Assembly: GCA_035389045.1 (NCBI GenBank)
Contig: DAOORA010000048.1
Location: 1 to 35,187, forward strand
Reading direction: 5' to 3'
Origin: Bacteroidales bacterium
GTDB lineage: Bacteria; Bacteroidota; Bacteroidia; Bacteroidales; CAIWKO01
DNA length: 35,187 bases
In this document: positions 5,891-27,805 of the stretch, in pieces
Layout: the number at the start of each line of letters is the position of its first letter
Numbering within the stretch: position 1 is the stretch's first letter
Program-made: the position numbers and the translations under genes
Notes under the pieces: model-generated
Database searches by the model: none
Told to the model about the DNA's origin: nothing
The model's input: the letters and a program-made list of their open reading frames with translations, nothing else

Positions 5891-5891
5891 G

Positions 5892-9761: not shown

Positions 9762-9769
9762 CAAATATA
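9762..9769 (-). promoter_or_regulatory. Bacteroidota -7 promoter box (TATATTTG) for the kinase operon
   Basis: Matches the TAnnTTTG consensus about 90 nt upstream of the proposed start. Confidence 0.5.
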
Positions 9770-10027: not shown

Positions 10028-10978
10028 TCACTCTTTAATTAATTTCATTTGACTTGTTTTGCTGTCTCCGACCAGCCTGATGATATAAACACCTTTGGAT
10101 AAAGAGTTCACGGCAACATCACCTTTTCCATCGATCAGCATCGTTTCCAGCACGCACTCACCAATCATGTTGTAAACCCGCAGGTGCATCTTTTGTTTAT
10201 CAGGACAGGCAACACTGATCCTGTGATGTGCCGGGTTTGGAGTGACAATCACTGACTCCGGGGTATCCATTTCAGTGGTCCCCGATTCCTTGTTGCAGAT
10301 ACATCTGATCGAAAATCCACTGAGCATTTTGTCGTGGTAATAGCGGTATATCTGTGTATTATCATAGCTCAGAAGCCGGTCCCAGGCGCCAGAGACATCA
10401 TATTCATCCGCAGTCCACCAATAGCCATAGTTTCCTATATCAGTGTACGAGGCATAGATATAACGATAGCCGCCGGGAATGGCGCTGAAGCCGCTGCTGT
10501 TGACAGCACCAGTATTTGGACTGGTCCAGTGTGCTGTTCCCGCCTCCTTAAGTTTCCCGCCGATATCGGTCCCGCTCAGTCCGGTAGCTGTGGTATCCAC
10601 GGCGCTGTCCAGATATTTTTCCATGATATTCCATTCGTGTTCACCCGGCACATGCCAACCCGCAGGGCATATACCGCCGGGGTCATTTGCTGCTGCCCAG
10701 TTGTACAAAGCGCCATAGACAGGAGCATAAACAACAGAATCATTATTATAATAACAGCGGGCACCCGAGGCAATATTTGTCCATGCAGTGGGATTGATGA
10801 CGTTCGGAACCGTCATGCCATTATTGTACCTTGTCACTCTAAGATTTTCCTTCATCCATATCTGTGTGCCAATGGTTACGGTGTTATATACATTGCCGTC
10901 GATGTCGGTCACCGTCTGCGCCATGCTGTTACTTACCAGTATTGTAATAGTTGTAAAAAAAATAAGGATTTGTTTCAT
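10028..10978 (-). CDS. Secreted FISUMP (Fibrobacter succinogenes major paralogous) domain protein with a T9SS type A sorting domain
   Basis: Signal peptide; DIDGNVYNTVTIGTQIWMKENL, YGALYNW, CPAGWHVP and GFSIRC. The C-terminal domain reads TPNPA...VYNMIG...LSKGVYII...KLIKE. Confidence 0.9.
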   Translation of the reverse strand: MKQILIFFTTITILVSNSMAQTVTDIDGNVYNTVTIGTQIWMKENLRVTRYNNGMTVPNVINPTAWTNIASGARCYYNNDSVVYAPVYGALYNWAAANDPGGICPAGWHVPGEHEWNIMEKYLDSAVDTTATGLSGTDIGGKLKEAGTAHWTSPNTGAVNSSGFSAIPGGYRYIYASYTDIGNYGYWWTADEYDVSGAWDRLLSYDNTQIYRYYHDKMLSGFSIRCICNKESGTTEMDTPESVIVTPNPAHHRISVACPDKQKMHLRVYNMIGECVLETMLIDGKGDVAVNSLSKGVYIIRLVGDSKTSQMKLIKE

Positions 10979-11015
10979 GGTTGTTTTGTTTCTTATAAAT
11001 GATTTTTAAAAACTT

Positions 11016-11176
11016 AGAAACTGTTTTGATTTTATGTTACATAAGATTTATGATGGATTTTTTAGCGAAACGAAGCAGATTTTGCAGACATAGTTTATCC
11101 TATGTCGAAAAATCTAACGAAGTTGCAGCATAAAAGACGCATAAAGATATGAAAAGACAAAATCAAAACAATTTCT
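11016..11176. mobile_element. MITE-like palindromic element (about 160 bp)
   Basis: Terminal inverted repeats AGAAACTGTTTTGATTTT (from 11016) / AAAATCAAAACAATTTCT (11159-11176). Internal hairpin AGATTTT-GACATAG..CTATGTC-AAAATCT. Confidence 0.6.
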
Positions 11177-11788
11177 TAATCTTAATGGTATCTTATTAAT
11201 TCTGGATAAATCGTTTAAAGACCTGCCTCTTAAATTTTGCAACGCATACAAAATGAAGCATAAATCATTTACAATTTAATCAAAAATACACACGCAATAT
11301 CGCACTTTTGCAGTGTTTGTACAAAAATATTATTTTTTTTCTACAATGGGCTGAATCCCTATCCGATAGAAATTAAAATGTATTTAATAAAAAAATTAAA
11401 ATTTGTCAGGCACATATCTATTATTTTTCAGATACTGATTAATTCAAAAACATTATTCTGCCGAACAACACTGATAATGAAGCCACCGATGCCTTGCCGG
11501 AAGTGCTGTGTGCCTTGAACGGCATCTGTATCAGCAAGAATTTCAACCAGTCAAGTAAAAAAGTCTTTATTTTACAAAAAGAAAAAAATCCTGATTGGCG
11601 ACAGACAGCCGATGTCCCGAAATTGAGATATTTAAAAAAATCAAATAGACTTAATGATTTAAAAAATAATATAAAACTTCTCTATGGCTGTGTAACTTTT
11701 TATTACACAGAAATACTGAGGAAAAGCATAGGTTCTGAACAAACGCAAATTTGTGAATAATTAAGTTTGAAATCCGGTACTAATTGTT

Positions 11789-12250
11789 TTATTGAGGGAT
11801 GCCATATTCCAATCCGATTATTTTTTCATCATCCCAACCGGCAAACATAAACCTGGCTTTAAGAAACGACGGCGGCCCGAATTTTTCTCTGACATTGTTT
11901 GAGAATCCATAGCCCTCTGTCGGAATACCCCAGACATTTTTATCCAGTTTTCCGTCATTATCTATATCATGCAGCACGGCAATGGCATAATTGCCATAAG
12001 GCACTTTCTCAAATTTTATCAACTCCACATCCCTGCTGATTTTTGAGATACTTCCTTTGTATGGTTCATTTTCCGGAAAATCAGACGCACAGTTATACAA
12101 GGCCACCATAAGCTGCCCGATATTACTTTTAAACCCTTTGACCAGAACATACAAAGTCCCCGTTTCGGTTTTCAGAATTTTTTTCTCACTTTGCACAGAA
12201 AAAGCGCCCCCGGTGCAAATAATAAGTAAAACCCAAGCTAATTTTTTCAT
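11789..12250 (-). CDS. DUF2141-like exported protein
   Basis: Signal peptide; G.L.VALY, FEKVPYGNYAIAVLHD.D.DGKLD and GIPTEGYGFSNN...FGPPSF. Confidence 0.85.
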   Translation of the reverse strand: MKKLAWVLLIICTGGAFSVQSEKKILKTETGTLYVLVKGFKSNIGQLMVALYNCASDFPENEPYKGSISKISRDVELIKFEKVPYGNYAIAVLHDIDNDGKLDKNVWGIPTEGYGFSNNVREKFGPPSFLKARFMFAGWDDEKIIGLEYGIPQ

Positions 12251-12420
12251 TTTTCCTGAATTTTATTCCTTTAACCCATAGTGTAAAGGATTCACAATGT
12301 TTTATACTAATTATCAGGGTTTTACTTTTCCTTTTCCATGTATTTGTTTTAATGACACTTATTTATTAAACGCCGGTAGACGACTTATTATTTTTCGTCT
12401 TGATAATGCATTTACATATT

Positions 12421-12767
12421 AGAATTTGTTTTGAATTTATCCCGTATTTTTGAAATTACTTCAATTGGCTTAGGCTGCCAGAAAAATTGCGAGTCACACA
12501 GCCGTTGTTCTGAAGAATTCCGAGGTTTTGAAAAGAATAAATGAACAAGGTGTCCCTGCCTGCCGAAACGGCAGTGCGGGCAGGGAAGTGTGGCTTGCTG
12601 ATTATGTTTTTCTTTTTTTCTAACCTTTGGCCAGTCTTACCTGCCTGCGTGCCGGACACTCCGGCAGGCAGGGACAAGTTTCTCCTTCGCTTCGTTGCAG
12701 GAGAATCTGCTCTGAATGACCGGAAAATCTGCTAATACAATGTGGTAATAAAATCAAAACAGTTTCT
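12421..12767. mobile_element. Second MITE-like element with related termini and nested CCTGCCTGCC palindromes
   Basis: Ends AGAATTTGTTTTGAATTTAT / ATAAAATCAAAACAGTTTCT. Internal inverted pair TGTCCCTGCCTGCCG (12551-12565) / CGGCAGGCAGGGACA (12662-12676). Confidence 0.55.
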
Positions 12768-12904
12768 TAGTTTTTACATTGTTTTAACCATGAAATGAGC
12801 CGATGACTGGGCACATGCTTGTGTGTAAGTCAGTAATCCGCTCAGTAGCCGCAAAAATTGTCGGTCTGCCTGATCTATAATGTTGAAATGAATAAATTTG
12901 TACT

Positions 12905-14077
12905 ATGAGAAAAGTTATTTCCACCGAGAAAGTTCCTATCAAACTCTGGCTTGACGCACCGGATGAAAACTCGTTGAACCAGGTTAAAAACCTTGCAAAC
13001 CTTCCCTTTGCGTTCAGCCATGTATGCCTGATGCCCGATGCACACGCCGGTTACGGAATGCCGATAGGCGGTGTGCTGGCAGCCGATAACGTCATTGTTC
13101 CCAACGCTGTTGGCGTCGACATCGGCTGCGGGATGTGCGCTGTAAAAACGGATATTAAGGCAGGTTCGTTGCCACAGGCTAAGCTGCGCCATATTCTTGA
13201 TGAGATCAGAAAACTTATCCCGCTGGGATTTGACCACCACAAGGAAGAGCAAAACGAAGAACTGATGCCGCAGAATTTTGATATTGATGAAATGAAAATT
13301 GTGAAACAGGAGTACCTGTCAGCATTAAAACAGTTAGGTACCCTTGGTGGCGGCAATCATTTCATTGAGATACAGAATGACGAGCAGAATTATATCTGGA
13401 TAATGATACATTCAGGCAGCAGGAACATCGGGCTGAAAGTGGCCGAATACTATAATAATAAAGCGAAAAAACTAAATGCCTTATGGCATACCGCTGTCAG
13501 TCCCAAAGCCGATCTGGCATTCCTGCCTTTTGAATCGGACGAAGCGCGAATGTATTATAACGAAATGAAATATTGTGTGGCTTTTGCCTTTGCCAACCGT
13601 AATCTTATGATGGAGCGGATTCAGAGTGTTCTGTCTGATAACGTTTCCCATATTGTATTTGATCCGTTAATAAATATCGCCCATAATTACGCAGCCTGGG
13701 AAGAGCATTTCGGGAAAAAAGTGGTGGTGCACCGCAAAGGAGCCACCTCAGCACGTCAGGGTGAAACAGGTATTATACCCGGCAGCCAGGGCACCCGGTC
13801 ATATATTGTCGTGGGGCTTGGCAACCATGACAGTTTCATGAGCTGTTCTCATGGCGCAGGCAGGATCATGAGCCGTAGCCAGGCCATAAAAAACCTGGAT
13901 CTGGAAGAAGAAATAAGAAAACTTGATAAACAGGGCATCATCCACTCCATCAAAAGCAAAAAAGACCTTGATGAAGCCTCGTCAGCCTATAAAGACATAC
14001 AAACTGTAATTCAGTCTCAGAATGATCTGGTCACCATAAAACATATATTAACCCCGCTGGGGGTAATAAAAGGATAA
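12905..14077 (+). CDS. rtcB: RtcB family RNA ligase (3'-phosphate/5'-OH)
   Basis: MPDAHAGYGMPIG, VGVDIGCGM, GTLGGGNHFIE, HSGSR, HNYA, HRKGAT, PGSQG, SHGAGR and DEA..AYK. Confidence 0.96.
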   Translation: MRKVISTEKVPIKLWLDAPDENSLNQVKNLANLPFAFSHVCLMPDAHAGYGMPIGGVLAADNVIVPNAVGVDIGCGMCAVKTDIKAGSLPQAKLRHILDEIRKLIPLGFDHHKEEQNEELMPQNFDIDEMKIVKQEYLSALKQLGTLGGGNHFIEIQNDEQNYIWIMIHSGSRNIGLKVAEYYNNKAKKLNALWHTAVSPKADLAFLPFESDEARMYYNEMKYCVAFAFANRNLMMERIQSVLSDNVSHIVFDPLINIAHNYAAWEEHFGKKVVVHRKGATSARQGETGIIPGSQGTRSYIVVGLGNHDSFMSCSHGAGRIMSRSQAIKNLDLEEEIRKLDKQGIIHSIKSKKDLDEASSAYKDIQTVIQSQNDLVTIKHILTPLGVIKG

Positions 14078-14098
14078 TTCGTAAACAAATTGATGAAT

Positions 14099-14135
14099 AA
14101 AAAAAAGGCTGTGAAAAGCATCTGATCTCACAGCC
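14099..14135 (-). terminator. Terminator between convergent rtcB and tRNA-Arg
   Basis: GGCTGTGA (14107-14114) / TCACAGCC (14128-14135) with an adjacent A8 run. Confidence 0.65.
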
Positions 14136-14146
14136 CAACATCTAAG

Positions 14147-14219
14147 CGATCCCGGTTGGATTCGAACCAACGACCCACAGCTTAGAAGGCTGTTGCTCTA
14201 TCCCCTGAGCTACGGGACC
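14147..14219 (-). tRNA. tRNA-Arg (TCT); CCA not encoded
   Basis: Reverse complement is GGTCCCGTAGCTCAGGGGATAGAGCAACAGCCTTCTAAGCTGTGGGTCGTTGGTTCGAATCCAACCGGGATCG, with anticodon loop CTTCTAA. Confidence 0.96.
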
Positions 14220-14315
14220 TCAATAAGTTACATCCGTGTGTCGATGATTTGAATAACAATTTGCATAACAGAAAAAAGAACGACATTCAGAAAAAACATT
14301 TCAACAAACGGAGCG

Positions 14316-14348
14316 CAAAGATACAAGATTTTTTCTTATTTGATCAAA
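14316..14348 (-). promoter_or_regulatory. Bacteroidota promoter for tRNA-Arg
   Basis: TTTG-N21-TATCTTTG on the minus strand. Confidence 0.65.
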
Positions 14349-14396
14349 AAGAAAAACGTTTTTTTTACAGACATAAAAACGATGTCCAAAAACAAT

Positions 14397-14479
14397 AAAG
14401 TAAAAGCTGCAACGAAGCTTTGTCAATGCCGGAACTAAAAAAGTAAAAGCTGCGAACAGGCTCTGTCAAACCCGAATTT
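14397..14479. repeat. Imperfect 43-bp tandem repeat
   Basis: AAAGTAAAAGCTGC at 14397 and 14440, each followed by a similar GCT(T/C)TGTCAA..CC.GAA tail. Confidence 0.75.
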
Positions 14480-14572
14480 TATTACAAAAAGGGAACAAGA
14501 AGTGAATACCATGGGAATCAAATGGGCGTGCTGATATGGTGCAAAAATGGTGTCAAGATACCCGGAAAATAA

Positions 14573-14605
14573 TAAACCCCTGATCACAGTGGATGCAGGG
14601 GTTTA
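14573..14605 (-). terminator. Hairpin/terminator after the long DUF6266-like gene
   Basis: Stem TAAACCCCTG / CAGGGGTTTA. Confidence 0.65.
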
Positions 14606-14626
14606 AGTTTTTTGGCCTGTTGTTGT

Positions 14627-16066
14627 CTATTTTACCTTTGATGCCAGTTCGTTACCGGCTTTAAATTTCACCACCTTCCGGGGGCGTTTCTTTTCAACTG
14701 AGAAATCATAATCACCATCAATACCGACCACATCAAACTCATTGATGATGGTATTAGCATCCATAAACTGAATTGTGTAAATCTGATTTCGTTGTAATTT
14801 GGAGCAGAAAAACAGAAAGTCGGAGCTGATAACATGTTCTTTTGTTTCACCTGTGGTACTATTTTTTGATATAACCTTATATGGTACAGCCGCAACCAGG
14901 TCGCCGGGGATGAAGTCTTTCAATTCCCCCCAGATTGCGGTATAAGGATGATGAATTTTCACGCTGTCCGGATGTATCAGCCCGTTTTTGAAGAGTAATT
15001 CGCAATATGAAAGAGTGTCCGGATGGTTAAAGCCAAACCTTGTGGCCGTGGTTTTGTTTTTTCCCATTGCATCGGTGATATAATACAGAATATTGAACGG
15101 TTTGTCCTGATCTCCTTCATTGATGGGAATCATGACTGATTGCCCTGAAGCAGGAAATGTATAATTGCCACCATAGCTGTTACCATTGGACACGAGTATC
15201 TGAGGAATAACATTAATCACATCATCGGGATAAAGTTCAGGGAACTTGGTGTAATCATCAATAGATATTTTTAGGTACCAGCCCGTTGCATCCTGGAAAG
15301 TGGTTGCGTGAATGTTTTCCGGTAGGATGATACGTTTTGAGATTTTGAAATCAAAATACACATCATCAATGTTGGCCGTGAAATACGCACCCACAGAGGG
15401 ACTGTTCATGATGTTTGCCGGAATGTACGGCCTGACATCACGCGAAGGATCATTGATGATGTTATAAAATAACATGCCTTCCGACCAGATATTACTGAAG
15501 TCGTAGTTCATCGGCCAGTCGGGAAGACTCTCTTCATGGATGTAAGTAGAGAAGAAATTTTTAAAAGGGAGTTTGCAGATATTGTCGGTATTGAAGGTCG
15601 TATCAATCGGTTTCCTGCCAACAGCGGTCAGCCTGATGGAATTAGGATCAATATCATCCGAGTTGATTAGTGTGTATTCAATGTAAAATTGATTTATAAA
15701 AGGGTCGTAAGCAGCCCGAAGGATCATCGGGGGCACCATGTTGCTACCGGAAAGGAGCATTTCACTGAAAGTGATGTTGCCGGAATCATCCACCAGGGGA
15801 TAGTTTTTCCTGATGGCTTCGGCCCATGCAGTTGACCTGCCGTTCCGGTTCCTGAAGTTCAGGGGGATTACATTGTCTTTGAATGGCTGCAATGCCAGTG
15901 AAAGGTTTTTGATTTTCTGTCGCTGTAGTTGCTGCGCTATTGTGTTTGGGTTTTTTACCATAGGCTGGTATTTTGAAACAGTGATCAGGGAATTCCATTT
16001 CCGGAATACCACGTTGCCGAGTTTCCCTATCGCATCACCGAGAAAGCCATTTTTTACTGTTGCCAT
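14627..16066 (-). CDS. DUF6266-like protein, long paralogue (479 aa)
   Basis: The N-terminus MATVKNGFLGDAIGKLGNVVF...VKNPNTIAQQLQRQK matches the family pattern and the upstream gene, followed by a beta-rich C-terminal extension. Confidence 0.75.
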   Translation of the reverse strand: MATVKNGFLGDAIGKLGNVVFRKWNSLITVSKYQPMVKNPNTIAQQLQRQKIKNLSLALQPFKDNVIPLNFRNRNGRSTAWAEAIRKNYPLVDDSGNITFSEMLLSGSNMVPPMILRAAYDPFINQFYIEYTLINSDDIDPNSIRLTAVGRKPIDTTFNTDNICKLPFKNFFSTYIHEESLPDWPMNYDFSNIWSEGMLFYNIINDPSRDVRPYIPANIMNSPSVGAYFTANIDDVYFDFKISKRIILPENIHATTFQDATGWYLKISIDDYTKFPELYPDDVINVIPQILVSNGNSYGGNYTFPASGQSVMIPINEGDQDKPFNILYYITDAMGKNKTTATRFGFNHPDTLSYCELLFKNGLIHPDSVKIHHPYTAIWGELKDFIPGDLVAAVPYKVISKNSTTGETKEHVISSDFLFFCSKLQRNQIYTIQFMDANTIINEFDVVGIDGDYDFSVEKKRPRKVVKFKAGNELASKVK

Positions 16067-16111
16067 ATTGCTATATTTTAAAGTTTACAATTAAGATGAA
16101 TTATGTGTTAT

Positions 16112-16147
16112 AAAAAAGGACTTACCGTTCAGGATAAGCCCTTTTTT
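16112..16147. terminator. Bidirectional intrinsic terminator between the two DUF6266-like genes
   Basis: AAAAAAGGACTTA...TAAGCCCTTTTTT. Confidence 0.7.
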
Positions 16148-16166
16148 GATAGGTGTTGGAATTTAA

Positions 16167-16811
16167 CTACACAGTTACAACTACAGTCCCGCTGTAAACA
16201 CTGTCGCAGCATTGGTTGCCTGCAGGATTCACAAAGAAGGAATAAACATGAACGGTGTCACCTCCCCAGGCTGCCGGAACTGTCTGGTCATCTGTGCCAG
16301 TCGCTCTTGTTACGGTAGTGGGGCTGAAAAGCCATTCATCCTTGTCCTCGTTATAGCTTGCAACATATAAAAAGTCGTTGTTAGCTTCATCCAGAGGATC
16401 AACAGGAGGAGTCCATGTTCTCTTTACTTTGAGTGCAAGGTCGTTTCCTGCATGGAATGTTACCGTCTTTGTCAGCGGCCCTTTTGCCACTTTCAGCAAA
16501 GAATAGTCAATGACATAATTTCCCGGGGTTCCGGTGATGGCCGTTTTGATGTTGTTTTTGATGAAAACATTGAAGGCTGACATATCAGTTGTCATGTTCT
16601 GAAATGAAACTTTGAGCATGGTCAGCAATCTGCGGCCTTCGGCTACCATCATTGAAAATTTGTTGCGCTGGTTCACCTGGTCGGGTGTTCTGGGGTTCTT
16701 CACCTGGATGGGTTTGGTGCGCATGGTGTTTTTCGAAAACTGTTTCGAGAAAACTGCAGTACCGAATTTCTGTTTGGTTCTGCCGGTGATAGGATTTTGG
16801 ACTATAGCCAT
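16167..16811 (-). CDS. DUF6266-like protein, short paralogue (214 aa)
   Basis: MAIVQNPITGRTKQKFGTAVF...VKNPRTPDQVNQRNKF, SAFNVFIKNN, IDYSLLKVAKG.L, and C-terminal HVYSFF...DSVYSG. Confidence 0.8.
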   Translation of the reverse strand: MAIVQNPITGRTKQKFGTAVFSKQFSKNTMRTKPIQVKNPRTPDQVNQRNKFSMMVAEGRRLLTMLKVSFQNMTTDMSAFNVFIKNNIKTAITGTPGNYVIDYSLLKVAKGPLTKTVTFHAGNDLALKVKRTWTPPVDPLDEANNDFLYVASYNEDKDEWLFSPTTVTRATGTDDQTVPAAWGGDTVHVYSFFVNPAGNQCCDSVYSGTVVVTV

Positions 16812-16932
16812 AATATTAAATTTAGGGGGTTAATAATCGGATTTAGGGTTATTTTTTTAATTTTATAAGCGGCCTTGATACGGAGTTGAAGCGGACTTAA
16901 TACAGTGATCATTTTTATAAATTTATTCTATG

Positions 16933-16940
16933 CAAAAATA
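16933..16940 (-). promoter_or_regulatory. Possible -7 box (TATTTTTG) for the DUF6266-like genes
   Basis: TAnnTTTG match about 120 nt upstream of the ATG; no clear -33 box. Confidence 0.4.
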
Positions 16941-17018
16941 ACGCTAAAAATCCTGAAAAGGTTGGTGGATATGGCTTCCATGTATAATGTTTCAACCGAT
17001 TGCTTTGTTCTGCAAAAT

Positions 17019-17044
17019 AAAAAAGGGAGTAGTGAAACTCCCTT
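17019..17044 (-). terminator. Terminator after the J-domain gene
   Basis: AAGGGAGT-agtgaa-ACTCCCTT with an adjacent A-run. Confidence 0.7.
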
Positions 17045-17050
17045 GTGACT

Positions 17051-17524
17051 TTATGTCAATATGAAACTGTCTTTTCGGTTTTCGATTATATCACTGCCAT
17101 ATTTGCAGCGGATGTATTCGATGGTTTTGGGCTTCTTGTTGGCACTTTTGTAGTCTGGTGGGCGGTAATACCACATAGTCTTTTTTGGTGCGAAATAGAA
17201 GCCCGTTTGTTTTAATTGTGCCCTGTGGGGATAGGTGTTGCCACTCAACCAGATCCAGTTCCCGATTAACTCAATGATGATGCCATCCAGTCCGATAATC
17301 TGGCTGATGATCTCCGGGTACCGGATGAATTCTTCCTGGTCCTGCTCTGACTTTTCCGCAAAGGAAAAGAACGGGTTTTTCATGATGTTTTCATACTGGA
17401 GGTTGATCTCCTGCATGGTTGCCGTATCGCCTCCCCTGTCGGGATGGTGCTGCAGGGCTAATTCTTTGTATCTGCGCTTCACTTCTTCGAGTGTGCAACA
17501 GGTTGAAAAGTACTGTGTTTTCAT
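17051..17524 (-). CDS. Small J-domain (DnaJ-like) protein of mobile-element type
   Basis: LEEVKRRYKELALQHHPDRGGD...MQEIN..YE (HPD motif). Aromatic C-terminal domain GNWIWLSGNTYPHRAQLKQTGFYF..KK.MWY. Confidence 0.85.
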   Translation of the reverse strand: MKTQYFSTCCTLEEVKRRYKELALQHHPDRGGDTATMQEINLQYENIMKNPFFSFAEKSEQDQEEFIRYPEIISQIIGLDGIIIELIGNWIWLSGNTYPHRAQLKQTGFYFAPKKTMWYYRPPDYKSANKKPKTIEYIRCKYGSDIIENRKDSFILT

Positions 17525-18622
17525 GGGTTTTGTTTATAAATTTTGATAACTTTTTCTGAGATTTGCGGCTCGCTGTGCGCTCGCCGCCACATAAAAAAAA
17601 TATATCATTAATGAAACCTTAGGCAGCAAGAAAGCGCGTGTGCAGGCTGAATTTCAAGGTTTTTGCAAAAAAAATACTACCTCCTGCCACTATAAAAAAG
17701 TCCTATAAATGCAGGAGTGTGGAGATTTTTTTTGCAAAACCCGTAGGGCTTGACCTTGCAAGAGCGGTGGCAGCTTAACTTTGCATAAGGTTTTATTAAT
17801 GAACTTCAAAGAAAATCTCTGTGGCATTAGGGTGTATTTTTTCTTTCTCTTCAAGGGTGGTTGGGTGGGGGTTGGTGGTAGCGTTGGCGGTTTTGGCGTG
17901 GTTTTTTGTTGTGTGTCAGGAAAAATAATATAGCTGTCGGAGGTACGGAGCAGCTTTATTATGTGCGGCTGCAAAAGTATAGCGAATGAACTGAGAGGAG
18001 CGTAACCGAGATCAGGTAGCGCAGCGGACTGTCGAGGTGGAGCGGAACGAAGTGAAGGAGCTATGCTTGCAGCAGCATGGCTTTACAAAAACCATGACAA
18101 AACCATTGGGTAAGGGCGCTTGGGATAAAAAAATTACGAAGTACATTATTGGTGCGATGGCAGAAAACTGATGAGGGCTGGCGTAGTTTTGTGCACGTGT
18201 TGCGGGAGCATCGGTGTGCTGAGGGCATAAAATCAGCGGGCGGCATTGGTTGCCACAAAGGAATAAGCTGCAATACCGCCGAAAGGTTTTGTTGGCTTGT
18301 GGGCAAATGCAATTATGAGTGAAATGAACGAAATCGAAATGAAATGTAGTGTTGCTGGAACGAAGTGGAAGCGTTAACGGAATGGAATGGAGATGTAGTG
18401 AATGAACTGATAATGCCATTACGGCGGTGAGTGATGATTTATTATTTTGAGGTTGGATTTATTGCTGCTCATGTATTTGTGTCCGGGAAGGGCTGCACTG
18501 CTGATTTTATTTGGGCGGGGAAACCGATGCTATTGGGTTTGGCAAAAACTATGACAGCCCGAAAATTACCATATCAAAGGGAAGTGTGGGTGGGCTTTTG
18601 TGCAGTGGCGGAGAGTGCGGCT

Positions 18623-18650
18623 ATTTTACATAATAACCATTATAACTGAC
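18623..18650 (-). other. dif/Xer-like recombination site 1
   Basis: Minus strand GTCAGTTATAA-TGGTTA-TTATGTAAAAT has an 11-6-11 layout. The right arm differs by one base from the canonical XerD arm TTATGTTAAAT. Confidence 0.7.
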
Positions 18651-18722
18651 AGGCAGCAACTCTGTCCAGCCTACCCAGCGGCGAAGCTATCGTTTACCTT
18701 ACGACCTGCTGCTTTCGCCTGC

Positions 18723-18750
18723 CTGTTTTATAATGCTTATTATGTTAGAA
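18723..18750 (+). other. dif/Xer-like recombination site 2, inverted relative to site 1
   Basis: CTGTTTTATAA-TGCTTA-TTATGTTAGAA has an 11-6-11 layout with a XerD-like right arm. Confidence 0.65.
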
Positions 18751-19261
18751 TAGCATACGATACTAAATCTTCTAAAATAGCGAATGGCAGACGGGCAAAA
18801 TACGTGGGTGCAAAGAGCATTTTGTCCCGGCTGCCTTAAAAAAATAAATTCATTAATAAAACCTAATTTTGACGACATTCCGGAATGCAAATCTTAGCCA
18901 GCGGAGAATAAATAAAAACGCTGCTCACTTTTTGCCTTTACTTTAAGAATTGTGAAAGGGAACAGGTTTAATTTGAGGAATTAAAGAGCTAAAAAGAGAA
19001 AACTAAGGTTATTTCACAGAAAATAAAAAATATAAGATATTATAAATCAACGCTTAAACCATTTATTTTTAGTTTTTCATTCAATTTTAACTTAAAAAAG
19101 GGGGTTATTTCACGGATTTTCAGAAATAAGGGAATACCTACGAAACTTGCGGCTGCCAATGGGCATAACCTTTTTCTCACTTATAAGTAAATTGAGTTAT
19201 TAGAAAAAAAACGTTAATAAAGTTAAATTATGTTAATAAATACAGCATTTTGTTAATAAAA

Positions 19262-19294
19262 TTTGCTTGTTCTGTCATAATTGTTGTATATTTG
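19262..19294 (+). promoter_or_regulatory. Consensus Bacteroidota promoter facing the 3' end of the DUF3800 operon
   Basis: TTTG (19262-19265)-N21-TATATTTG (19287-19294). Confidence 0.7.
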
Positions 19295-19297
19295 CAC

Positions 19298-19366
19298 TCA
19301 AGTTCATTCTTCATTCGAAGAAAGGAAATCGAAAAACGCAAAGCCTAGATGTTTTGCGTTTTTTGC
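19298..19366 (+). ncRNA. Candidate small RNA of about 65-70 nt
   Basis: It lies between the promoter and a terminator and has no ORF. It contains hairpin TTCTTC-ATTC-GAAGAA, then AAAAACGCAAAGC/GTTTTGCGTTTTT with a T-run. Confidence 0.45.
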
Positions 19367-19368
19367 TT

Positions 19369-19875
19369 TTAAAGAATCTCATTTAGTCTGCGATTATATT
19401 TTTTCATGATCTTATCACGCTTCGCATCCTTGCCTTTCAAATAATAAGCAGTTATCAAGTAGTATGCTGATCTGTCACGCAAAGGCTCAAAAATAATTAC
19501 ATACTTCTCGTCTTTATCATATAAATAAGTCCTTAAACCATCAGGTTCCTTAATTGAAAAAAGATACATATTAGAAGGCTTTCTTTCTTCAATATGGTAC
19601 TTAACCCAGTGCAATCTAACTGAACGATCAAGATCAAATTCCCTTTTTCTGGTGGCTTTATCAATAATAACAGTTGTAAGATGGGTAAATAGTGTTTCCA
19701 TTTTAATAACACCATCAGCAGGAGTGGGAGTAATTTGTTTGCCCTTAAACCTAAAATTCTCATTATTCGCTATATCTCTATTAAATATACCCAATAAAGA
19801 TTGTTTGCGCTGGAAGTCATTATATGTATTTAATTCTAATAAGCTATTATATGTTTTTAATAAATTTAATGGCAT
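19369..19875 (-). CDS. Hypothetical basic protein, possibly a BECR/RelE-like RNase fold
   Basis: Starts 2 nt after the DUF3800 stop. H-x-R-rich core (FTHL...R..D.DRSVRLHW) and a C-terminal YVIIFE...YYLITAYY strand pattern. Confidence 0.7.
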   Translation of the reverse strand: MPLNLLKTYNSLLELNTYNDFQRKQSLLGIFNRDIANNENFRFKGKQITPTPADGVIKMETLFTHLTTVIIDKATRKREFDLDRSVRLHWVKYHIEERKPSNMYLFSIKEPDGLRTYLYDKDEKYVIIFEPLRDRSAYYLITAYYLKGKDAKRDKIMKKYNRRLNEIL

Positions 19876-19877
19876 AG

Positions 19878-20561
19878 CTATCTTAATTCAATAAAAAATA
19901 AATTCAATTTCTTTGAGTGATTTGTGCATGTTAACGATTCCTTACTATGATTTTTTATTTTATCAATAATCTGTATTTTAGCGATATTTTGCTTTTTATC
20001 ATCGTTATGAAAGTATGAAATCGCACCCATCAGAAAATCTGCTAATTGCATTAGTAAACTTTCATAAGAATGGATATTCTGAACATTCCTAAACACTCCA
20101 AATTTTGTATTTAATATATCTTTTAATTTGTTAACTTTTCTTGCACTCAAAGTGTCTTTTATGTCCAGATAGACGTTGTAATTGTATAAGGTATTTATGT
20201 TATGATTAAGTAAATAATAATACATGGTATAATAAAAGTCATCGTAGGTTTTGTTAAAAGCGCCATTATTTATTGTTGATTTATTAATGCCAACAGCTCT
20301 GAATTTAAGATCTGTGGCAAAAAAATAATCAACAAGATCAATATAGAAACGAATTTTAGAAGATGACACGTACGACCATTTAATTTCAGCATAAAAATTA
20401 TGCTTCTTCTTTAAATTCTTAATATTTTCAGTATGTAACCGAACCTGGTTATATGCCGAACTAACTGATCCCAAAAACATAAAAGCCTTATGATCATTTT
20501 CGATATGACAACTTTCATCGCAATATATGTTGAATGTTTTATTTGCTGTTGAATTATTCAT
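19878..20561 (-). CDS. DUF3800 family protein (RNase H-like acidic motifs)
   Basis: NIYCDES, EIKW, VYLD and QLADFLMGA. Confidence 0.85.
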   Translation of the reverse strand: MNNSTANKTFNIYCDESCHIENDHKAFMFLGSVSSAYNQVRLHTENIKNLKKKHNFYAEIKWSYVSSSKIRFYIDLVDYFFATDLKFRAVGINKSTINNGAFNKTYDDFYYTMYYYLLNHNINTLYNYNVYLDIKDTLSARKVNKLKDILNTKFGVFRNVQNIHSYESLLMQLADFLMGAISYFHNDDKKQNIAKIQIIDKIKNHSKESLTCTNHSKKLNLFFIELR

Positions 20562-20642
20562 ATAAGCAATTTATTTTTGTGAGTTAAAAAGAAGATTCAT
20601 GTGGGGGAATTAATCAAATAATAAAACAATAAATTTTTTAAT

Positions 20643-22064
20643 CTAAATAACTCTGATTTCAGGCATTTCATCTGAAAATTCTTCATCTATCAAGTGTATC
20701 TGGTTTCGGACAATCTGACGTTTTTCAAGCGCCGGCTTTAAGCAGAATTCATTAAAATCTTCTTTGCTGATGTCGGAGGAACTGTTTACATTCGGAAACA
20801 ACAGTTTTAAGTAAGCCGTCGCAATTCTTTTTACTGCGGTAGTGTCCCGAGTGTCGGCCTTTGCCGGAACATCAATCAAATCATTGACAATAGTAGAATA
20901 AACCGGATTATCACGAAGTTCATGCATTATTTCTGAAAAATACTCAACATTTAATGTCCATCCGTTAATTTTTAGGTTTTCATTAATACGAGGTAATTTC
21001 CAACCTTCAATGAAGCCATGAAAACGATCAAGGAGGGCTGATTCCCGGAATGTTTCTGGCAATTCCACAAAATATTTGGATTTGACGGGTTTTTTATCAC
21101 TGGTTAAAGTAATATTACCCATAATAATAAGACCTGCCTGAGAAATAAGCTTCACATTGGCAACTGTTGTGTAACCGAATTCAAGATAACTTTTAAGGGC
21201 TGCCTGTATTTCTGTTGCATCGGAAAAAGTTATTGTCTGAATTTCATCCATGGTAACAAAGTCATATAGAGTGATTGCGCCCATCGACTTTTTTGTCATG
21301 TCATAAAACAGTTTTGCCCGCGTGACCTTGCCACCGCTAATCATCCAACCATATTTACTAAGGTTCCCGAAAATATAAGATTTGCCTGTACCCTTAGGTG
21401 CTAGTTCAATTAAATTCAGCCGGGGCTCAATAAATATCAGAATTCTGCTCAGGAACATAAGTTTCTGAGATAGAGAATCAAAACCATCAGGATTATATTC
21501 CATCGATCGAATAAGAAGATCAATCCATTCTATGATGTTAAAGTCTTTTCGAGCATTTCTGAAATAATCCAAATCAACTTTATATGGTTTAAAAGCCTTA
21601 TAGTTTACCAACTCAACATAACCTTTCTCATGATCATCGGGTGGCTGATAAACCAAAGTAACAACGCCCCAAATTTCACCATCCTTTAATTCTTTATTCT
21701 TTTTGGCTACATGTTCCGGAATTCTCCCTTCATTTGACTTAATGCCTAAATCTGGAATAGAAAAAAGCATTCGGTCGTTTTTCAAATCTGTTTCAACGAT
21801 AAATCTCGTCAGAACAACAACCTGTTCTCTATAAGTCCGCAGGCGATTTTTCAAATCATTATCCTTACCAGGAATATGGTTTTCTAAAAATTTCAGTACA
21901 CCATCCCGATCAAGATTACCGTATGAATCTGTGTATTTTTTAACCAGGTAATCTTTAATAAAAGATGGCAGATTCTTACCAACAAAAACACTATAATTCT
22001 GAGGTGTTTTTATTACTGATTCATCAGGAAATGCCTGTTTTATTTTTTCGTCTAATGTGCTCAA
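20643..22064 (-). CDS. brxL: BREX BrxL AAA+ ATPase without an evident Lon protease domain
   Basis: EWIDLLIRSM, NLIELAPKGTGKS, DEIQ, ESALLDRFHGFIEGW and RD..AVKR. Its start overlaps the pglZ stop. Confidence 0.88.
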   Translation of the reverse strand: MSTLDEKIKQAFPDESVIKTPQNYSVFVGKNLPSFIKDYLVKKYTDSYGNLDRDGVLKFLENHIPGKDNDLKNRLRTYREQVVVLTRFIVETDLKNDRMLFSIPDLGIKSNEGRIPEHVAKKNKELKDGEIWGVVTLVYQPPDDHEKGYVELVNYKAFKPYKVDLDYFRNARKDFNIIEWIDLLIRSMEYNPDGFDSLSQKLMFLSRILIFIEPRLNLIELAPKGTGKSYIFGNLSKYGWMISGGKVTRAKLFYDMTKKSMGAITLYDFVTMDEIQTITFSDATEIQAALKSYLEFGYTTVANVKLISQAGLIIMGNITLTSDKKPVKSKYFVELPETFRESALLDRFHGFIEGWKLPRINENLKINGWTLNVEYFSEIMHELRDNPVYSTIVNDLIDVPAKADTRDTTAVKRIATAYLKLLFPNVNSSSDISKEDFNEFCLKPALEKRQIVRNQIHLIDEEFSDEMPEIRVI

Positions 22065-24406
22065 AATAAGTCCTCCTCAATTAAACCGGATTTGATATTT
22101 ATAGTGAAAGATTTTTCAAAATTATCAACAAGAACTGCCACAGACAACTCTCCCGATAATGATTTATCCATGATAATTTCCCACTTATGGGTGTTATTAT
22201 TAAAATTAAGTTTTTGTTTTTTGCCTGAAAACTTCAAATAAGCATTCTGAGGCTTCGGCATTATAGTAAATGAAAGCAAGGGTTCTTTTTTCGAAATCTC
22301 AGTTTTTTCGATGGTAACTGAATAATCAATTTGGTTGGTGTCTTTTTTGTTGGAAATAATAAGTAAGGGAACCAGCACTTCCTCAGGGGTACATCCACCA
22401 TGAGCCTCCCTTATTGGCTTTTTACCTAAAGAATTGTGTTTTAGCGCAATTAAATATTCCTTTTGGTCAATATCAGATTTGTGGTAAATGTAATCAGAAT
22501 CCTGAGTATGTTCATTACCCTTTACCTCTATGAAACGCCCCTCATGACTATCTTCCTTGCCATATTTCTTAGAAGAGGCAAGTCTTGATAAAGCAGTTAA
22601 TCCGTGGTCTGAAACCAAAGCATATGTTTGATTTGAATCGAGAATAAGGCATGAATTCAATATGCGCTTTATCTCTTCCATTTCTTTAATTAACAGATCA
22701 GGATAAGAATATGTATTATTATGAATGAAAGAATCAAAATCCTGTATGTATTTAGCATCTGAAAAACGATTATGCTCAGTACTTGTCGGTAAATTAGCAA
22801 CGCCAACAAGTTTTTTAACAATCCTCAAATCTTTATTAGCCTGAGTTAGGTAATTTTCGATAAATGACACCCATTCGATTCCCAGGGCATCAATCCATAT
22901 CACCTTATCAACCTTGTTTGTATGCAATATGCTGTGTAACGATTCAAAGCTATGATACCAGTTATAAAACGAATCACTATTACCATTAAATTCTAATAAT
23001 ATTTTGTTCAGATTATCTGAAACCTTATCGCTCAGTTTAGATTTTTTATATTCAGCCAAATATTCATAAATCCATTCTTGGTTTTTACTAGTATTATCAA
23101 ATATGCTGGATGAAATATAATTAGCAATATCAGGGAATCTTTGGGATAACAATTCGTAATCAGATATTTCATTACTTACAAATAATGCAAAAATGAATTC
23201 TTTTTCGAACTGAAAACATCCTGTACAAACCATTAAGGCAAGGTTTTTATCGGGCAGTTCTTTAATTTTGTTCTTTAACTCGTTTATTACATCATCACTT
23301 AAGTTAGCAGATTTAAGGCATTCGTATTGTTTAATTAAATTTAATCGCTCACTTATAAACGACTCTTTCGTATCAAGTGAAAAGATGGCCAAAAACAAAT
23401 ACTTTAATAGAGTGTGATCTGTGTAGTCGGGTAAAGATATAAGAACCTTTGAAAGATATGTCTGTTTTAAAGAATCATTAGACACAACAAAATGCTGTAA
23501 TAACCATTTATCAAATTCATTGTCTGACTTTAACCAAAAATCAAGAAAATTATTCTGTGTTATAGAAACAACATTAAAATGTTTTTTTACACAATCAGTA
23601 AAGGTCGTAAAATCTTTATTTATTAGTGATGATAGCTTTTCCCAATGATTATTATCCTTAATAATAAAAGGAACAGGAATTACTTTATTTAAAACCTTTT
23701 CAATTAGGTTTTTAATGTTTTCAAATTTCTCAATAAAAAAAATTGAATCCGGTAAGGTATTATTATAAAAAATATTCAGCGGCTTTGAATAACAAATCAC
23801 ATCACAGGGGCTCTTTTTCTTCCAAAATTTTAACCATTCTTCTGTGTTGGGGATTGTTTCAATATCCATTAATTTCCCTGCTATTTTATCAGCTGATAAA
23901 AAAACTTTTATTGAATTGGGAGTTTCATTAGAAATCTTCCAAAAAGGGGCAGATTCTTCACTACGGGTAAAATCCTGAAAAAAATCTTTTTCAAACCTTT
24001 GTTCAATACCAATCAATGGTAAATAAATACGGCGTGAAATATCTGAATTTTCAATCAAAAGCACTTGATGAAAGAAATTGCTTAATTCTGGAGATGAATA
24101 GAACCGTACCAATTCGGAAAAAGGTACTATGGCCGTATCAACATTAATATTTTTTACAATATTTATAAGGGAATCTTTGGTTATCCATCCATCAGGGTGA
24201 GGTAACTCTCTTTCAATATGACATATATTAATTCCAATTTTATCCAGCCTTTCAATAAGCGCTCTGAAGGTCTCGAATCTTTGCAAAAAAATTAATCTTA
24301 CCGGATAGCGATTTGATAATATATTGCGAGTATGCTTGTCTGATTCAATTTCAGAAACTAAATCATCAAGGTTACTAAACTCTTTTATTTTATCGACTAA
24401 TTTCAT
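22061..24406 (-). CDS. pglZ: BREX type 4 PglZ alkaline-phosphatase-fold protein
   Basis: WIDALGIEW, LPTST, SDHG, HEGR and HGGCTPEEVLVP. Confidence 0.88.
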   Translation of the reverse strand: MKLVDKIKEFSNLDDLVSEIESDKHTRNILSNRYPVRLIFLQRFETFRALIERLDKIGINICHIERELPHPDGWITKDSLINIVKNINVDTAIVPFSELVRFYSSPELSNFFHQVLLIENSDISRRIYLPLIGIEQRFEKDFFQDFTRSEESAPFWKISNETPNSIKVFLSADKIAGKLMDIETIPNTEEWLKFWKKKSPCDVICYSKPLNIFYNNTLPDSIFFIEKFENIKNLIEKVLNKVIPVPFIIKDNNHWEKLSSLINKDFTTFTDCVKKHFNVVSITQNNFLDFWLKSDNEFDKWLLQHFVVSNDSLKQTYLSKVLISLPDYTDHTLLKYLFLAIFSLDTKESFISERLNLIKQYECLKSANLSDDVINELKNKIKELPDKNLALMVCTGCFQFEKEFIFALFVSNEISDYELLSQRFPDIANYISSSIFDNTSKNQEWIYEYLAEYKKSKLSDKVSDNLNKILLEFNGNSDSFYNWYHSFESLHSILHTNKVDKVIWIDALGIEWVSFIENYLTQANKDLRIVKKLVGVANLPTSTEHNRFSDAKYIQDFDSFIHNNTYSYPDLLIKEMEEIKRILNSCLILDSNQTYALVSDHGLTALSRLASSKKYGKEDSHEGRFIEVKGNEHTQDSDYIYHKSDIDQKEYLIALKHNSLGKKPIREAHGGCTPEEVLVPLLIISNKKDTNQIDYSVTIEKTEISKKEPLLSFTIMPKPQNAYLKFSGKKQKLNFNNNTHKWEIIMDKSLSGELSVAVLVDNFEKSFTINIKSGLIEEDLF

Positions 24407-24414
24407 AAAAGTCG

Positions 24415-27400
24415 TTAATTAAAATACTTATCAATCAAACTCAAAAATTGAGGATTTTCTTCAAGAAACTGAATAATTCTATTTTTCAGCTCATTTTCTC
24501 CACGATTGAAGCTCCTGACCTTATCAATAGTTTTTTTACCACCATTTGCAGGACCGTTTGGTGGAATAACAGGAGGTATATCCGGGCCTGAGCCACTCGG
24601 AGTATCATTTGGCGGCGAAGGTTGGGATTTATTACGTTTATCCCACTGGTACACTTTTAATTTCACACCATCCTCTTTCCAAAGACCAATTTCCTCCTGC
24701 ATATTTGAAATCAAATACTCATTTATTTCATCAAAGTTATCTTCAGAAAAAACAATGTCGTCATCAACCGACTGTAAAAATGAAAGGAAACCACTTCGGA
24801 AATTCTCAGGCTTAAGAATCAATTTTAAATCCACACGGGCATCTTTAATCTTATTCAATACACTTGATATCAACTTAACATCAATCTCATTTGTAGCATT
24901 GTATAACAATTTCAACAACTCATCAATAGCAATGGAAATATTATTATCAACCGAATTATATTTTAATGCCCACAGGGGGAATTTTGCTGTAGTCTTAACA
25001 TAATTGACTATTGCCCAGCGAGTATCAGTAATACTATTAAAATCTTTCAGGTCAAACAATTCAAAAAGAATTTTCTTTAACTCTCTTTCTTCTTTTGAAC
25101 CGAACCTGACATTTAACTTATTTTGATTTCTATTATCCTGCCAATAAGAGAATATATGCCCTATCAAATCCCTCATTTCGTCGTTTGCAATTGGACGGCC
25201 AACATCTGCAACATAAAGTTCTCCAACATATTTTCTCATAGCATAACCCATAAGGGCCATGTTGGGCATATTTGTATATACCCCATAGGGGGCTTCCGTC
25301 AAAAACCTCAATTCATCACCAATATTGAAAACAGGGCGAAGTTTTAGTTTTGACATTTTTTCATCAATCTCATCTTGTATGATTTTAAGGGTATGATTCG
25401 GATCACATTCTGATTTTATTAGAAGGTTGTCAGAAATAATATATTCACCCTCCTTATCTTTGACTATAGACTTTAAATAAGTATTTGGGCCACTTGAAGT
25501 CTTTTCCTCTAATTCAGTCCGGTCATCAGCATTAATAAATATCTCGGCTGATTTAATAGCAGCCTGAAATTTCCAAATATTTGCGTTACGAAATAATTCA
25601 GGAATATTGTCAATACCTTTTGAAAATATAATCGGACAAATTAACGTATTAATAAAACCGCCCACCTGATTAGCAAGGTGCTTTTCATCTTTATCCCTGA
25701 AAATAACCTGCACATATCTTGTTCTGATTCTAGTAAACCATTCTTCCACCTGACCTTTTGCGTAATTTTCGAAATTTGTTGATTGTTCCTCATAACTATG
25801 ATTATCACTAACCTGCTTTCTTGCCATGAAATCAATAAATTTCTCGTAGTTCTTTTCAGAAAAAGGTTCTTCAATTATTGTAAATATCACATTCTGAAAA
25901 TCATCATCCAAAGCAAAATCTTTTAATTTGGGCAATGCGGTCAATTGATCATAATCACCATTTGATAAAAACACTGCACATTTTAAGGAGTAGGGCTTAT
26001 TAAATGCCTTTGAAAGACGGTTTCGAAGAACATGCTCATTTTCAATATTGGCTGAGAAGAGAGCTATTTCAGATTCTCGATATATATTTTCTTTAAAAAT
26101 AAATTTTTCAATATCGCCATCAACTTTTGCATATTTTAGTACTGAAATTAAATCTTTAAACTGATTTCTAATATCCTCCTTTGCTTGTTCAATTTCCCTA
26201 ACCGGAAGAGAATAAAATTCAATAAGGTAGTCACCAGCAGGTGTTTTAGTAACAATACCATTTTCATCAATAAAAAACAATATATCTTCCAATTCATTTT
26301 CAAAACCAGAGCCAATAAAAAGAGATAAGATATTTTCAGAAGATGGGGTTATTGGACTAGCTTCTTCACCAGAAACATCAATCACCTTAAACAGAATATT
26401 CAGCAATAAAATACCTTTAAAAACTTTGGTGTAATTCTCCCCTTTTTCTTCAACCCTTTGAATATTCAGGCGATATTTGTCTAATACCTGATTGAATCTG
26501 CCTTCCTGATCGTTTTCAAAAGCTTCAACAAAAAAGTCCCATAAATAATCCGGTGTGAGCATGGGACTACCAGTTAGCTCTTTTTCTAAAAAATTTAAAA
26601 ATCCTAGTTCCTTATCATATAGAAACCCAAAAATACTTCTGTTGGTTGAACCCAAATTTCGTGCAATAAATGTTGAAAGATAAGCGGAATATGGATGAAT
26701 GGGAAAAAGGTCTTTTATTCTTGTTTTAGTAGCTGAACCATTATTATTTGTGAGCTTGCTTATCAATTCATCCCAAAGAGAAGAGTTATCAAATACTTCG
26801 CTTTGAAATTTACGCCATTTTACGGTGTCAATTTTCTTAATTGATGCACCCATAATGTGGTACGTTGTTATAGGTTCCATACGATATGAAATTATATGGA
26901 ATCTATCATTCATACGGGATAAATCTTCTTTTGGAATTGAATGTTGATGAGGTGTCCTATGGCTTATCAAATATAAAAAAATGTTATTTTTTTCGCTTAA
27001 TTCAGCAATATTCTGTATTTGATTTATTATACCTGAACTGATGGAATCCATGACAGAGGTAAATTCATCCCAAAAAATCATTATACCTTTTGCCTTGTTT
27101 TGGGCAATCAATTCCTTGTTAATTTCAACAAGCCATTTGGTAATATCCTCATGAGAAAAATGAACACCTTCCTTACTAAGGGTGCTTTCTATGACATTGA
27201 AAAAATCAATATCATAGGAATTAAGCTTTTTTAATATGTCGTTTTTATTTGAGACATATATGCTTAGTTCCTCATGTTTTTTAATAAGCAAATCCCAATC
27301 AATTAGAGGACTATTTACCTGTTCAATCATCCTTTCGAAATCACTTGTAGTAACAATACCCAAGTCATTAAACCCAGGAGAAGTTCTTATGGCTTTTTCA

Positions 27401-27798: not shown

Positions 27799-27805
27799 GA
27801 CAACT

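Follow-up and report, generated by a model that had tools for sequence, protein, structure and literature searches.

Two inverted sequences that resemble the chromosomal site dif lie close together in a 35,187-nucleotide stretch of DNA from a Bacteroidales bacterium, and the question raised by this locus is what such a pair may be used for. The stretch, here called the window, is the whole contig C48 of genome G000. Both sites belong to a repeated element of 4.45 kb, which encodes a J-domain protein, a DUF6266 protein and a 479-aa protein, and together they form a hairpin. This hairpin is real, conserved and beyond chance. As judged from sequence comparison, it is tentatively read as a conserved folded Xer-type recombination site used in a single-stranded phase, an explanation that we prefer while giving it somewhat less than an even chance. 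The hairpin consists of the following parts:

18623-18650, minus strand: site 1, a dif-like 28-mer GTCAGTTATAA-TGGTTA-TTATGTAAAAT, giving, on the plus strand, the hairpin's 5' half; 17/22 arm positions match the host dif.
18651-18722, no strand: loop of 72 nt between the sites, the ends of which prolong the stem as ACAGGCAG/CTGCCTGT; length and sequence differ by lineage.
18723-18750, plus strand: site 2, a dif-like 28-mer CTGTTTTATAA-TGCTTA-TTATGTTAGAA, forming the 3' half of the hairpin; 18/22 arm positions match the host dif.

The initial annotation of this DNA had described two inverted dif-like sequences 100 bp apart at 18620-18754, and the letters are exactly as it gave them: the start-to-start distance is exactly 100 bp with 72 nt in between, and a repeat search returned an 18-nt core (18628-18645 against 18728-18745) of 94% complementarity. 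The fold that it had proposed was reproduced when the region 18610-18765 was folded as single-stranded DNA, i.e., the XerD-like arms are located at the base of the stem, the spacers pair with a single C-C mismatch and pairing is prolonged into the loop. The free energy of the fold is -26.1 kcal/mol for the plus strand (z -4.2) and -30.9 kcal/mol for the minus strand (z -6.8), and for either strand none of 200 dinucleotide shuffles was as good. Exact matches to TTATAA-N6-TTATG occur three times in the window, two of them being sites 1 and 2. In shuffled windows a mean of 0.275 sites scored at least 17/22 against the host dif arms, and two such sites in inverted orientation and at most 300 nt apart arose in 1 of 200 shuffled windows.

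Candidates for the dif site of the host were collected by scanning genome G000 for TTATAA-N6-TTATGT with at most one mismatch, which resulted in 137 matches, six of them exact. One of these matches, TTGTCTTATAA-TTAATC-TTATGTTAAAT at G000:C56:9331-9358, is found in intergenic DNA, at a place where the local GC skew changes sign from plus to minus, and we take it as the host dif. With up to three mismatches allowed, this 28-mer has exactly one match in 12 of 23 genomes of the family, while the reversed pattern, used as control, has none in the same 23 genomes. In G019, the sole complete genome (4,863,537 bp), the dif candidate is located at 4,570,519. The gene dnaA was tried as origin marker and rejected: it is found at 0.54 Mb, which is 0.87 Mb from the dif candidate and so not opposite to it. 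For this reason the GC skew was sampled instead (twenty 20-kb samples, one per 245 kb); it is positive from 2.45 to 4.43 Mb and negative elsewhere, with the sample at 0.245 Mb near zero, and the candidate lies within the interval of the plus-to-minus switch, approximately half a genome from the opposite switch. Moreover, the string ATAA-TTAATA-TTATGTTAAAT has a single occurrence in three out of four additional genomes with related elements.

Compared with this actual host dif, both sites of the hairpin remain dif-like, as had been claimed, with the 17/22 and 18/22 matching arm positions listed above; the XerD arm of site 1 matches at 10/11. The spacers TGCTTA and TGGTTA share 2/6 positions with the dif spacer TTAATC, and next to the XerC arm only the first base. 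The host encodes a XerD equivalog at G000:C12:20623-21489, scoring 341 bits against a curated cut-off of 329.6, and a second Xer-like gene is present in its genome at G000:C24:24515-25390.

The conservation of the hairpin extends beyond the window. In an order-wide search of 401 genomes, site 1 alone matched at 87-94% in five genomes of other families; in four of the five an inverted site 2 follows after a short loop, and one of these hairpin loci also encodes J-domain and DUF6266 proteins. From all fetched loci, 36 distinct versions of the hairpin with a whole length of 76-135 nt were assembled. Aligned with each other, they show invariant ATAA and TTATGT cores and an outer arm that is invariant over most of its length, giving the consensus GC-TATTT(A/T)ACATAA ... 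TTATGT(T/A)AAATA-GC. The family consensus of the outer arm, TTATGTTAAAT, is identical to the XerD arm of dif at 11/11 positions in many lineages and is thus closer to dif than the copy in the window. The loop varies from about 20 to 72 nt, the lower value being found in locus L037. Of the 36 loci in which the J gene is preceded by at least 1400 nt of upstream DNA, 28 contain the hairpin; these 36 are not independent cases, as several of them represent one contig present in two collections.

The initial annotation had named conservation of the 11-6-11 spacing in homologues as a point on which its proposal would depend, and this is borne out in part. Centres of 6/6 nt are kept in 14 of the 36 hairpins, i.e., in the lineage of the window and in three others, whereas the remaining 22 have unequal centres (roughly 5-7 against 6-7 nt), with approximately 5/7 in 15, 5/6 in five and 7/6 in two. 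The centres of other lineages begin with GA, GG, CG or TG.

The inner, XerC-like arm always starts with TAT/ATA and covaries thereafter. At position 3 of this arm the 36 hairpins have an A-T pair in 26 and a G-C pair in 10 cases; at position 4 there are 17 A-T, 17 G-C and one T-A pair and one mismatch, and a conserved irregular position comes next after the covarying arm. As MAFFT shifted the 5' inner arms by one column between lineages, the pairs were counted by dedicated scripts. The spacers were compared in eight versions (five of the window's lineage, L037, L038 and L039) and additionally in L040, which ends at a contig end and is outside the 36. They are complementary save for position 3, plus one adjacent position in two of them, and the remaining spacer positions of sites 1 and 2 change together. 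The position-3 spacer mismatch in the window's lineage and the unequal centres are persistent features, and such irregularities are of consequence only in the folded form. Furthermore, the halves of a hairpin fold with each other at a mean of -19.4 kcal/mol compared to -11.4 kcal/mol for cross-lineage chimeras; for 13 of 26 representatives no chimera was as good, and overall 30 of 650 chimeras were. An ungapped control contrasting own partners with other partners did not discriminate (4.8 versus 4.6 paired positions), bulges shifting the register.

The hairpin is part of a larger unit, which is composed as follows:

14404-18855, minus strand: the whole repeated element of 4.45 kb, which recurs with different flanks in genomes G002 and G014 and in metagenome contigs L169-L179.
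14627-16066, minus strand: gene of the 479-aa protein, of no known family; coding periodicity, no family or phage match.
16167-16811, minus strand: gene of the DUF6266 protein, 214 aa (PF19781, E 6e-38).
17051-17524, minus strand: gene of the J-domain protein, 157 aa (DnaJ E 6.5e-6; phrog_15863 E 9e-38); coding periodicity.
17525-18619, no strand: conserved non-coding stretch linking the J-domain gene to the hairpin, rich in G on the plus strand, with GAATG/GAAATG direct repeats.
18751-18855, no strand: distal segment ("module") with a terminal hairpin at 18786-18835 and the element boundary at 18846-18855.

All three genes show a clear 3-base periodicity of substitutions. The 1.3 kb at 17525-18860 show no such periodicity and, at 13-20% mismatch, are better conserved than the gene of the 479-aa protein, which argues that this region is non-coding and under selection. 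Its terminal hairpin at 18786-18835 shows compensatory changes in relatives, and an analogous terminal hairpin is present in distant lineages. The GAATG/GAAATG repeats are iteron-like (for example, 18327-18351 and 18376-18400 are two 25-nt direct repeats that are 80% alike); distant lineages keep this block, a hint of a protein-binding array or an origin. No recognisable recombinase, Rep or relaxase was found among the element proteins in Pfam, NCBIfam and PHROGs.

The 4.45-kb unit recurs at 68-97% identity in G002 (on three contigs), in part in G014 (on one contig) and in nine metagenome loci on eight contigs; the G002 copy on contig C41 is incomplete at the contig end. The flanks vary among the copies and contain ordinary chromosomal genes, the elements are dispersed singly, and one genome can carry three to five copies. 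The left end of the element contains no dif-like sequence. When the flanks of ten element copies were compared with their own genome and with all fetched loci in search of empty sites, no match was obtained, and in the family search the right flank of the copy on contig C7 of G002 matched a contig end only. Neither an inversion nor a circle joint was present in the Logan contigs of four of 22 public runs; such contigs hide rare variants, and the stretches that they leave uncovered carry no weight. In the only RNA-labelled run, small contigs map to 16207-16467 and to 16941-17091, and the hairpin is uncovered, a result that is evidence neither way. The segment to the right of site 2 was considered as host target DNA, as a CTX-type integration predicts, and was rejected, being conserved in copies with unrelated flanks.

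Some incomplete or distant copies deserve mention. Short copies that hold only site 2 and the distal segment are found 100-160 nt downstream of tRNA genes in the loci L022, L025, L026 and L027 of the relatives G002, G004, G003 and G014 (tRNAs Ser-cga, Met, Arg-acg and Arg-ccg, respectively). The first 60-100 nt past the terminal hairpin are alike in the window, L022 and L025, and in the window and in L025 defence genes come next. The host genome itself carries a partial second copy (G000:C103:1602-1851, locus L028), which consists of the inner arm of site 1, the loop enlarged by a 109-bp insert, site 2 and a further 30 nt. In this single case the homology begins at most one base from the predicted XerC cleavage position of site 1, which is suggestive. 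Finally, a distant locus, L163, is a whole contig of 8751 nt with a 33-nt terminal overlap, the sole one in 21 short contigs, which suggests circularity. Its larger open reading frames (ORFs) are all on one strand and include an MT-A70 methylase and three tandem genes of 209-219 aa, the first with a DUF6266-like N-terminus as detected by tblastn, none of which is named by Pfam; a weak Rep_trans match (E 0.0014) is below the cut-off.

The reading as a folded Xer-type site is favored because the structure is conserved, its irregularities make sense only in the fold, the outer arm equals that of dif and a recombinase gene is lacking; this combination suggests that the element borrows the Xer recombinases of its host. 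According to the proposed mechanism, the two dif-like sequences would pair into a stem as soon as one strand is free. The base of the stem would mimic the XerD arm of the host dif and its inner part a XerC-type arm, with a deliberately imperfect centre lying between the arms. XerC and XerD of the host would then bind the stem during a single-stranded phase, e.g., rolling-circle copying or transfer, and the imperfect centre would limit the reaction to one strand pair, as in CTXphi attP(+) and integron attC. As outcome, unit-length circles might be cut from multimers, or the element might be joined to a partner site. Integration at dif in the manner of CTX is a minority sub-case to which only a low probability is assigned, and integration at dif did not generate the observed copies. 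Resolution of single-stranded multimers or an exchange of hairpin by hairpin would be possible. A more far-reaching proposal, unlikely though worth stating, is that these elements constitute a new class of Xer-exploiting, recombinase-less Bacteroidota elements with a single-stranded phase, in which the hairpin would serve to excise or circularise unit copies or to recombine hairpin with hairpin, and not to enter dif.

Several observations weigh against a folded Xer substrate. The copies are located away from dif: in G000 contig C48 carries the element and C56 carries dif, and G002 has at least three copies, none of them on the contig holding its dif. In none of the copies does the hairpin form the joint with the chromosome: conserved element DNA extends for about 1.1 kb on one side and, beyond site 2, reaches about 100 nt further in the lineage of the window and about 330 nt further in distant ones. 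The bases of the dif centre beside the XerC arm, which CTX needs (PMC4246890), are absent from the hairpin centres. As to a single-stranded phase, Pfam and PHROGs reveal neither a Rep nor a relaxase nor any other sign of it in the element, none of 20 whole short contigs of close relatives is circular, and no relative was found in the viral contig collection (DUF6266) or in phage records (479-aa protein). The hairpin is missing from 6 of the 36 J-gene loci and broken by an insertion in the outer arm in a further two. The folding energies give no clearly preferred strand (16 versus 10). Moreover, the covariation of the arms could in principle also stem from homogenisation of two duplex sites.

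Four other explanations have to be weighed against the same evidence. The hairpin might be a replication-origin structure, i.e., a single-strand origin or a cruciform adjacent to the iteron-like repeats and read by replication proteins of the host, its likeness to dif being incidental. Large imperfect hairpins that are active only in the single-stranded state are a typical feature of the single-strand origins of rolling-circle replicons; the hairpin of the element is internal and not at a junction, it lies within the 1.3-kb conserved non-coding region with the GAATG/GAAATG repeats kept across lineages, and the distant circular 8.7-kb contig with DUF6266-like genes has the weak Rep_trans match (E 0.0014, below the cut-off). 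An origin leaves unexplained, however, why the near-invariant outer arm equals the host XerD arm at 11/11 positions and why an ATAA/TTAT core with a centre of 5-8 nt is kept, which is the layout of a tyrosine-recombinase site; the element also has no initiator gene. Such an origin is regarded as unlikely, if to be reckoned with. Distinctly less is to be said for a helix within an RNA, either a long structured one or a 5' leader, produced by transcription of the non-coding region. Such a leader would be suitably placed upstream of three co-oriented genes, the region is conserved above the level of the 479-aa gene, and covarying arms suit an RNA helix equally well. However, the strand bias that G-U pairs would give is missing, and the identity to the DNA arm bound by a recombinase is left without explanation. 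RNAalifold found no consensus structure in an alignment of 16 sequences, a weak test with the window's lineage misaligned, and in 18400-19400 there is no Rfam match at the gathering threshold or at E<=10 apart from chance-level ones, the Rfam matches over the window being tRNAs only. An RNA is accordingly considered distinctly unlikely.

Recombination between duplex sites is a further candidate. Sequences resembling dif are known to be employed as Xer sites of plasmids and in pdif modules, and the pair might be two ordinary duplex Xer sites, either as a small invertible switch or pdif-like boundary, which the initial annotation had offered as its alternative, or as a cer/psi-like system resolving multimers of an episome. 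It fits this idea that dif-like arms are kept at both sites and that the spacers of sites 1 and 2 are nearly identical in the window's lineage. However, the centre lengths differ in 22 of 36 hairpins, and unequal lengths bar an exchange of duplex by duplex between the two sites; the approximately 20 nt between the sites in L037 are too little to invert, the orientation of the loop relative to the flanks is the same in 36 of 36 versions, no strand-switching joint was seen in the contigs of the four runs (which hide rare variants), and a single site would be enough for multimer resolution. With loops down to about 20 nt and no inverted variant seen, the boundary of an invertible or pdif-style cassette is disfavored, and duplex use in any of these forms appears very unlikely. 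The least probable explanation, and an extremely unlikely one, is that the sites are attachment sites of the adjoining island with BREX type 4-like (BREX-4) genes, site 1 or 2 marking its left and a third dif-like 28-mer its right end. This third sequence, TTATCTTATAA-TGATTT-TTATGATAAAT on the minus strand (34288-34315), has the same orientation as site 1 and matches 20/22 arm positions of the host dif, more than either hairpin site; moreover, close to 19000 the GC content decreases from 0.44 to 0.29, and the island is absent from L169, a contig that is 97% identical to the window over 14146-18855. The same strain comparison sets the left edge of the island at 18856, about 100 nt past site 2 and outside the sites, and the hairpin accompanies the DUF6266 element in loci without such an island. 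The third site furthermore falls within an ORF of 436-476 aa (33755-35185), where it codes for a segment of a protein that has internal repeats and belongs to no known family.

Turning from the hairpin to the proteins of the element, the DnaJ match of the J-domain protein has 26.6 bits, just under the 27.8-bit cut-off, and the protein is 60-98% identical in relatives, L227 being the one locus with a lower value (49%). A tblastn search with the 479-aa protein yielded no match in phage records. By eye, it shares with the DUF6266 protein an N-terminal motif MA.V.N ... NP.T..Q and a C-terminal-type motif F.AGN.LA.KVK, and from these motifs the two look like paralogous structural proteins. For DUF6266, 318 relatives were collected. 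Species genomes contribute 73 loci, all from metagenome-assembled genomes and often several per genome, labelled mostly Bacteroidales, Lentimicrobiaceae, Marinilabiliales or Prolixibacteraceae; in metagenome contigs, 203 stretches were confirmed and 80 retained. The hosts come from waste-water and sediment-type communities. The predicted structure (predicted local distance difference test, pLDDT, 83.7) consists of an N-terminal arm, helices and an FN3/Ig-like sandwich. Assigning DUF6266 as capsid by its fold was attempted and dropped: the matches are to generic FN3/Ig domains, including those of phage tail and decoration proteins, and are not diagnostic. A protein atlas look-up returned its own family only, and a literature search returned no paper naming DUF6266. 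By its gene content, the family can be described as small (about 4.4-5.4 kb), multi-copy, recombinase-less elements of Bacteroidota with J-domain, DUF6266 and larger DUF6266-like proteins. It is large and apparently undescribed.

Regarding the rest of the window, L169 diverges from it exactly at 18856, and therefore the BREX-4 island is regarded as a separate insertion. The island (18856-35187) is low in GC, 0.29-0.34 across the BREX genes, and contains BREX type 4-like genes (DUF3800, BrxL, PglZ_4, BrxC-like and a PAPS-reductase/4Fe-4S protein) as well as DUF6965, a DUF3987 primase-like gene and an HTH_17 gene. On the other side of the element, the tRNA-Met region (window 208-322) is located in L169 about 26 nt from the tRNA-Arg (14146). 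The 13.8 kb that separate them in the window (323-14145), with a Fib_succ protein carrying a type IX secretion system (T9SS) tail, DUF2141 and RtcB, are absent from L169; given the short distance between the tRNAs there, this stretch represents either an insertion in the window or a deletion in L169.

As to the wider meaning, folded single-stranded Xer substrates have so far been experimentally established only for CTX-like vibriophages, and for Bacteroidota there was before only a sequence-based suggestion from 2011 for microvirus proviruses. Here, a folded double-dif architecture is a conserved and covarying feature in a new context of element family and phylum. Either Xer serves another reaction in these elements or the mimicry of dif has another purpose. 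Should the elements be a new Xer-exploiting class, the hijacking of Xer via folded DNA would be far wider and mechanistically broader than the paradigm of the Vibrio IMEXs, mobile elements that integrate by making use of Xer. The question is directly testable, since the oligonucleotides as well as the dif site and the xer genes of the host have now been specified.

Among known systems, the nearest in host phylum are microvirus proviruses. Krupovic and Forterre (2011) predicted dif-like att sites for Bacteroidetes microvirus proviruses by bioinformatics only, and for BMV4-6 an extra dif-like sequence near one end is likened by the authors to the inverted pair of CTXphi (PMC3091885). The statement of the initial annotation that it knew of no characterised example from Bacteroidota has to be qualified by this prediction of 2011. 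Like BMV1-7 (Alpavirinae), the elements described here are small, integrase-less Bacteroidota elements with dif-like sequences; unlike them, they are not flanked by direct dif-like repeats, whereas the BMVs are (PMC3091885) and encode a VP1 capsid protein and a rolling-circle replication (RCR) Rep. Neither a VP1/F-type capsid nor a VP4-type RCR Rep gave a Pfam or PHROG match in this element.

Likeness in structure is also found elsewhere. The attC site of integrons is an imperfect hairpin that acts as a folded single strand, with two protein-binding boxes around an unpaired centre, conserved irregularities of the stem, a terminal loop of very variable length and a tyrosine recombinase related to Xer. 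The hairpin shares with attC the imperfect stem, the boxes around the centre, the conserved irregularities and the variable loop. It differs in that its outer arm is ACATAA/TTATGT and not the R-box consensus, and in that there are no cassette arrays here; the unit is one of 4.4 kb with three genes, and the hairpin is not at its edge. The pdif modules of Acinetobacter plasmids and cer/psi are likewise dif look-alikes outside the chromosome terminus, and pdif sites occur as inverted pairs. However, pdif pairs flank gene modules and act as duplex, whereas here 20-72 non-coding nt are enclosed and the centres are often unequal in length.

The closest architecture is that of CTX, in which the inverted dif-like sites are 90 bp apart with centres of 12 bp versus 5-7 bp (PMC4246890). 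As in CTXphi attP(+), two inverted dif-like sites tens of nucleotides apart form a stem whose arms are of the XerC and XerD types, both systems have centres of unequal length or imperfect pairing (PMC4246890 for CTX), and neither element has its own recombinase while both hosts have XerC/XerD-type genes. In contrast, CTXphi integrates at dif, and one arm of its hairpin becomes the junction, the prophage end being composed of site 1, loop, hybrid site 2 and chromosome; in the elements described here the hairpin is intact and internal, element DNA follows beyond site 2 and the copies lie away from dif. They also have neither an RstA-type Rep nor a filamentous-phage gene, their centre is without homology to the dif centre and their host belongs to a different phylum. 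As the copies are not at dif, the hairpin is not simply a CTX-type attP. The description of the hairpin as CTX-attP-like in the initial annotation therefore has to be given up for its position, which is not at dif and off the junction, and for its spacers, which share 2/6 positions with dif; it stands for the architecture, i.e., for the paired inverted sites, the dif-like arms, the imperfect centres and the reliance on no recombinase of the element's own.

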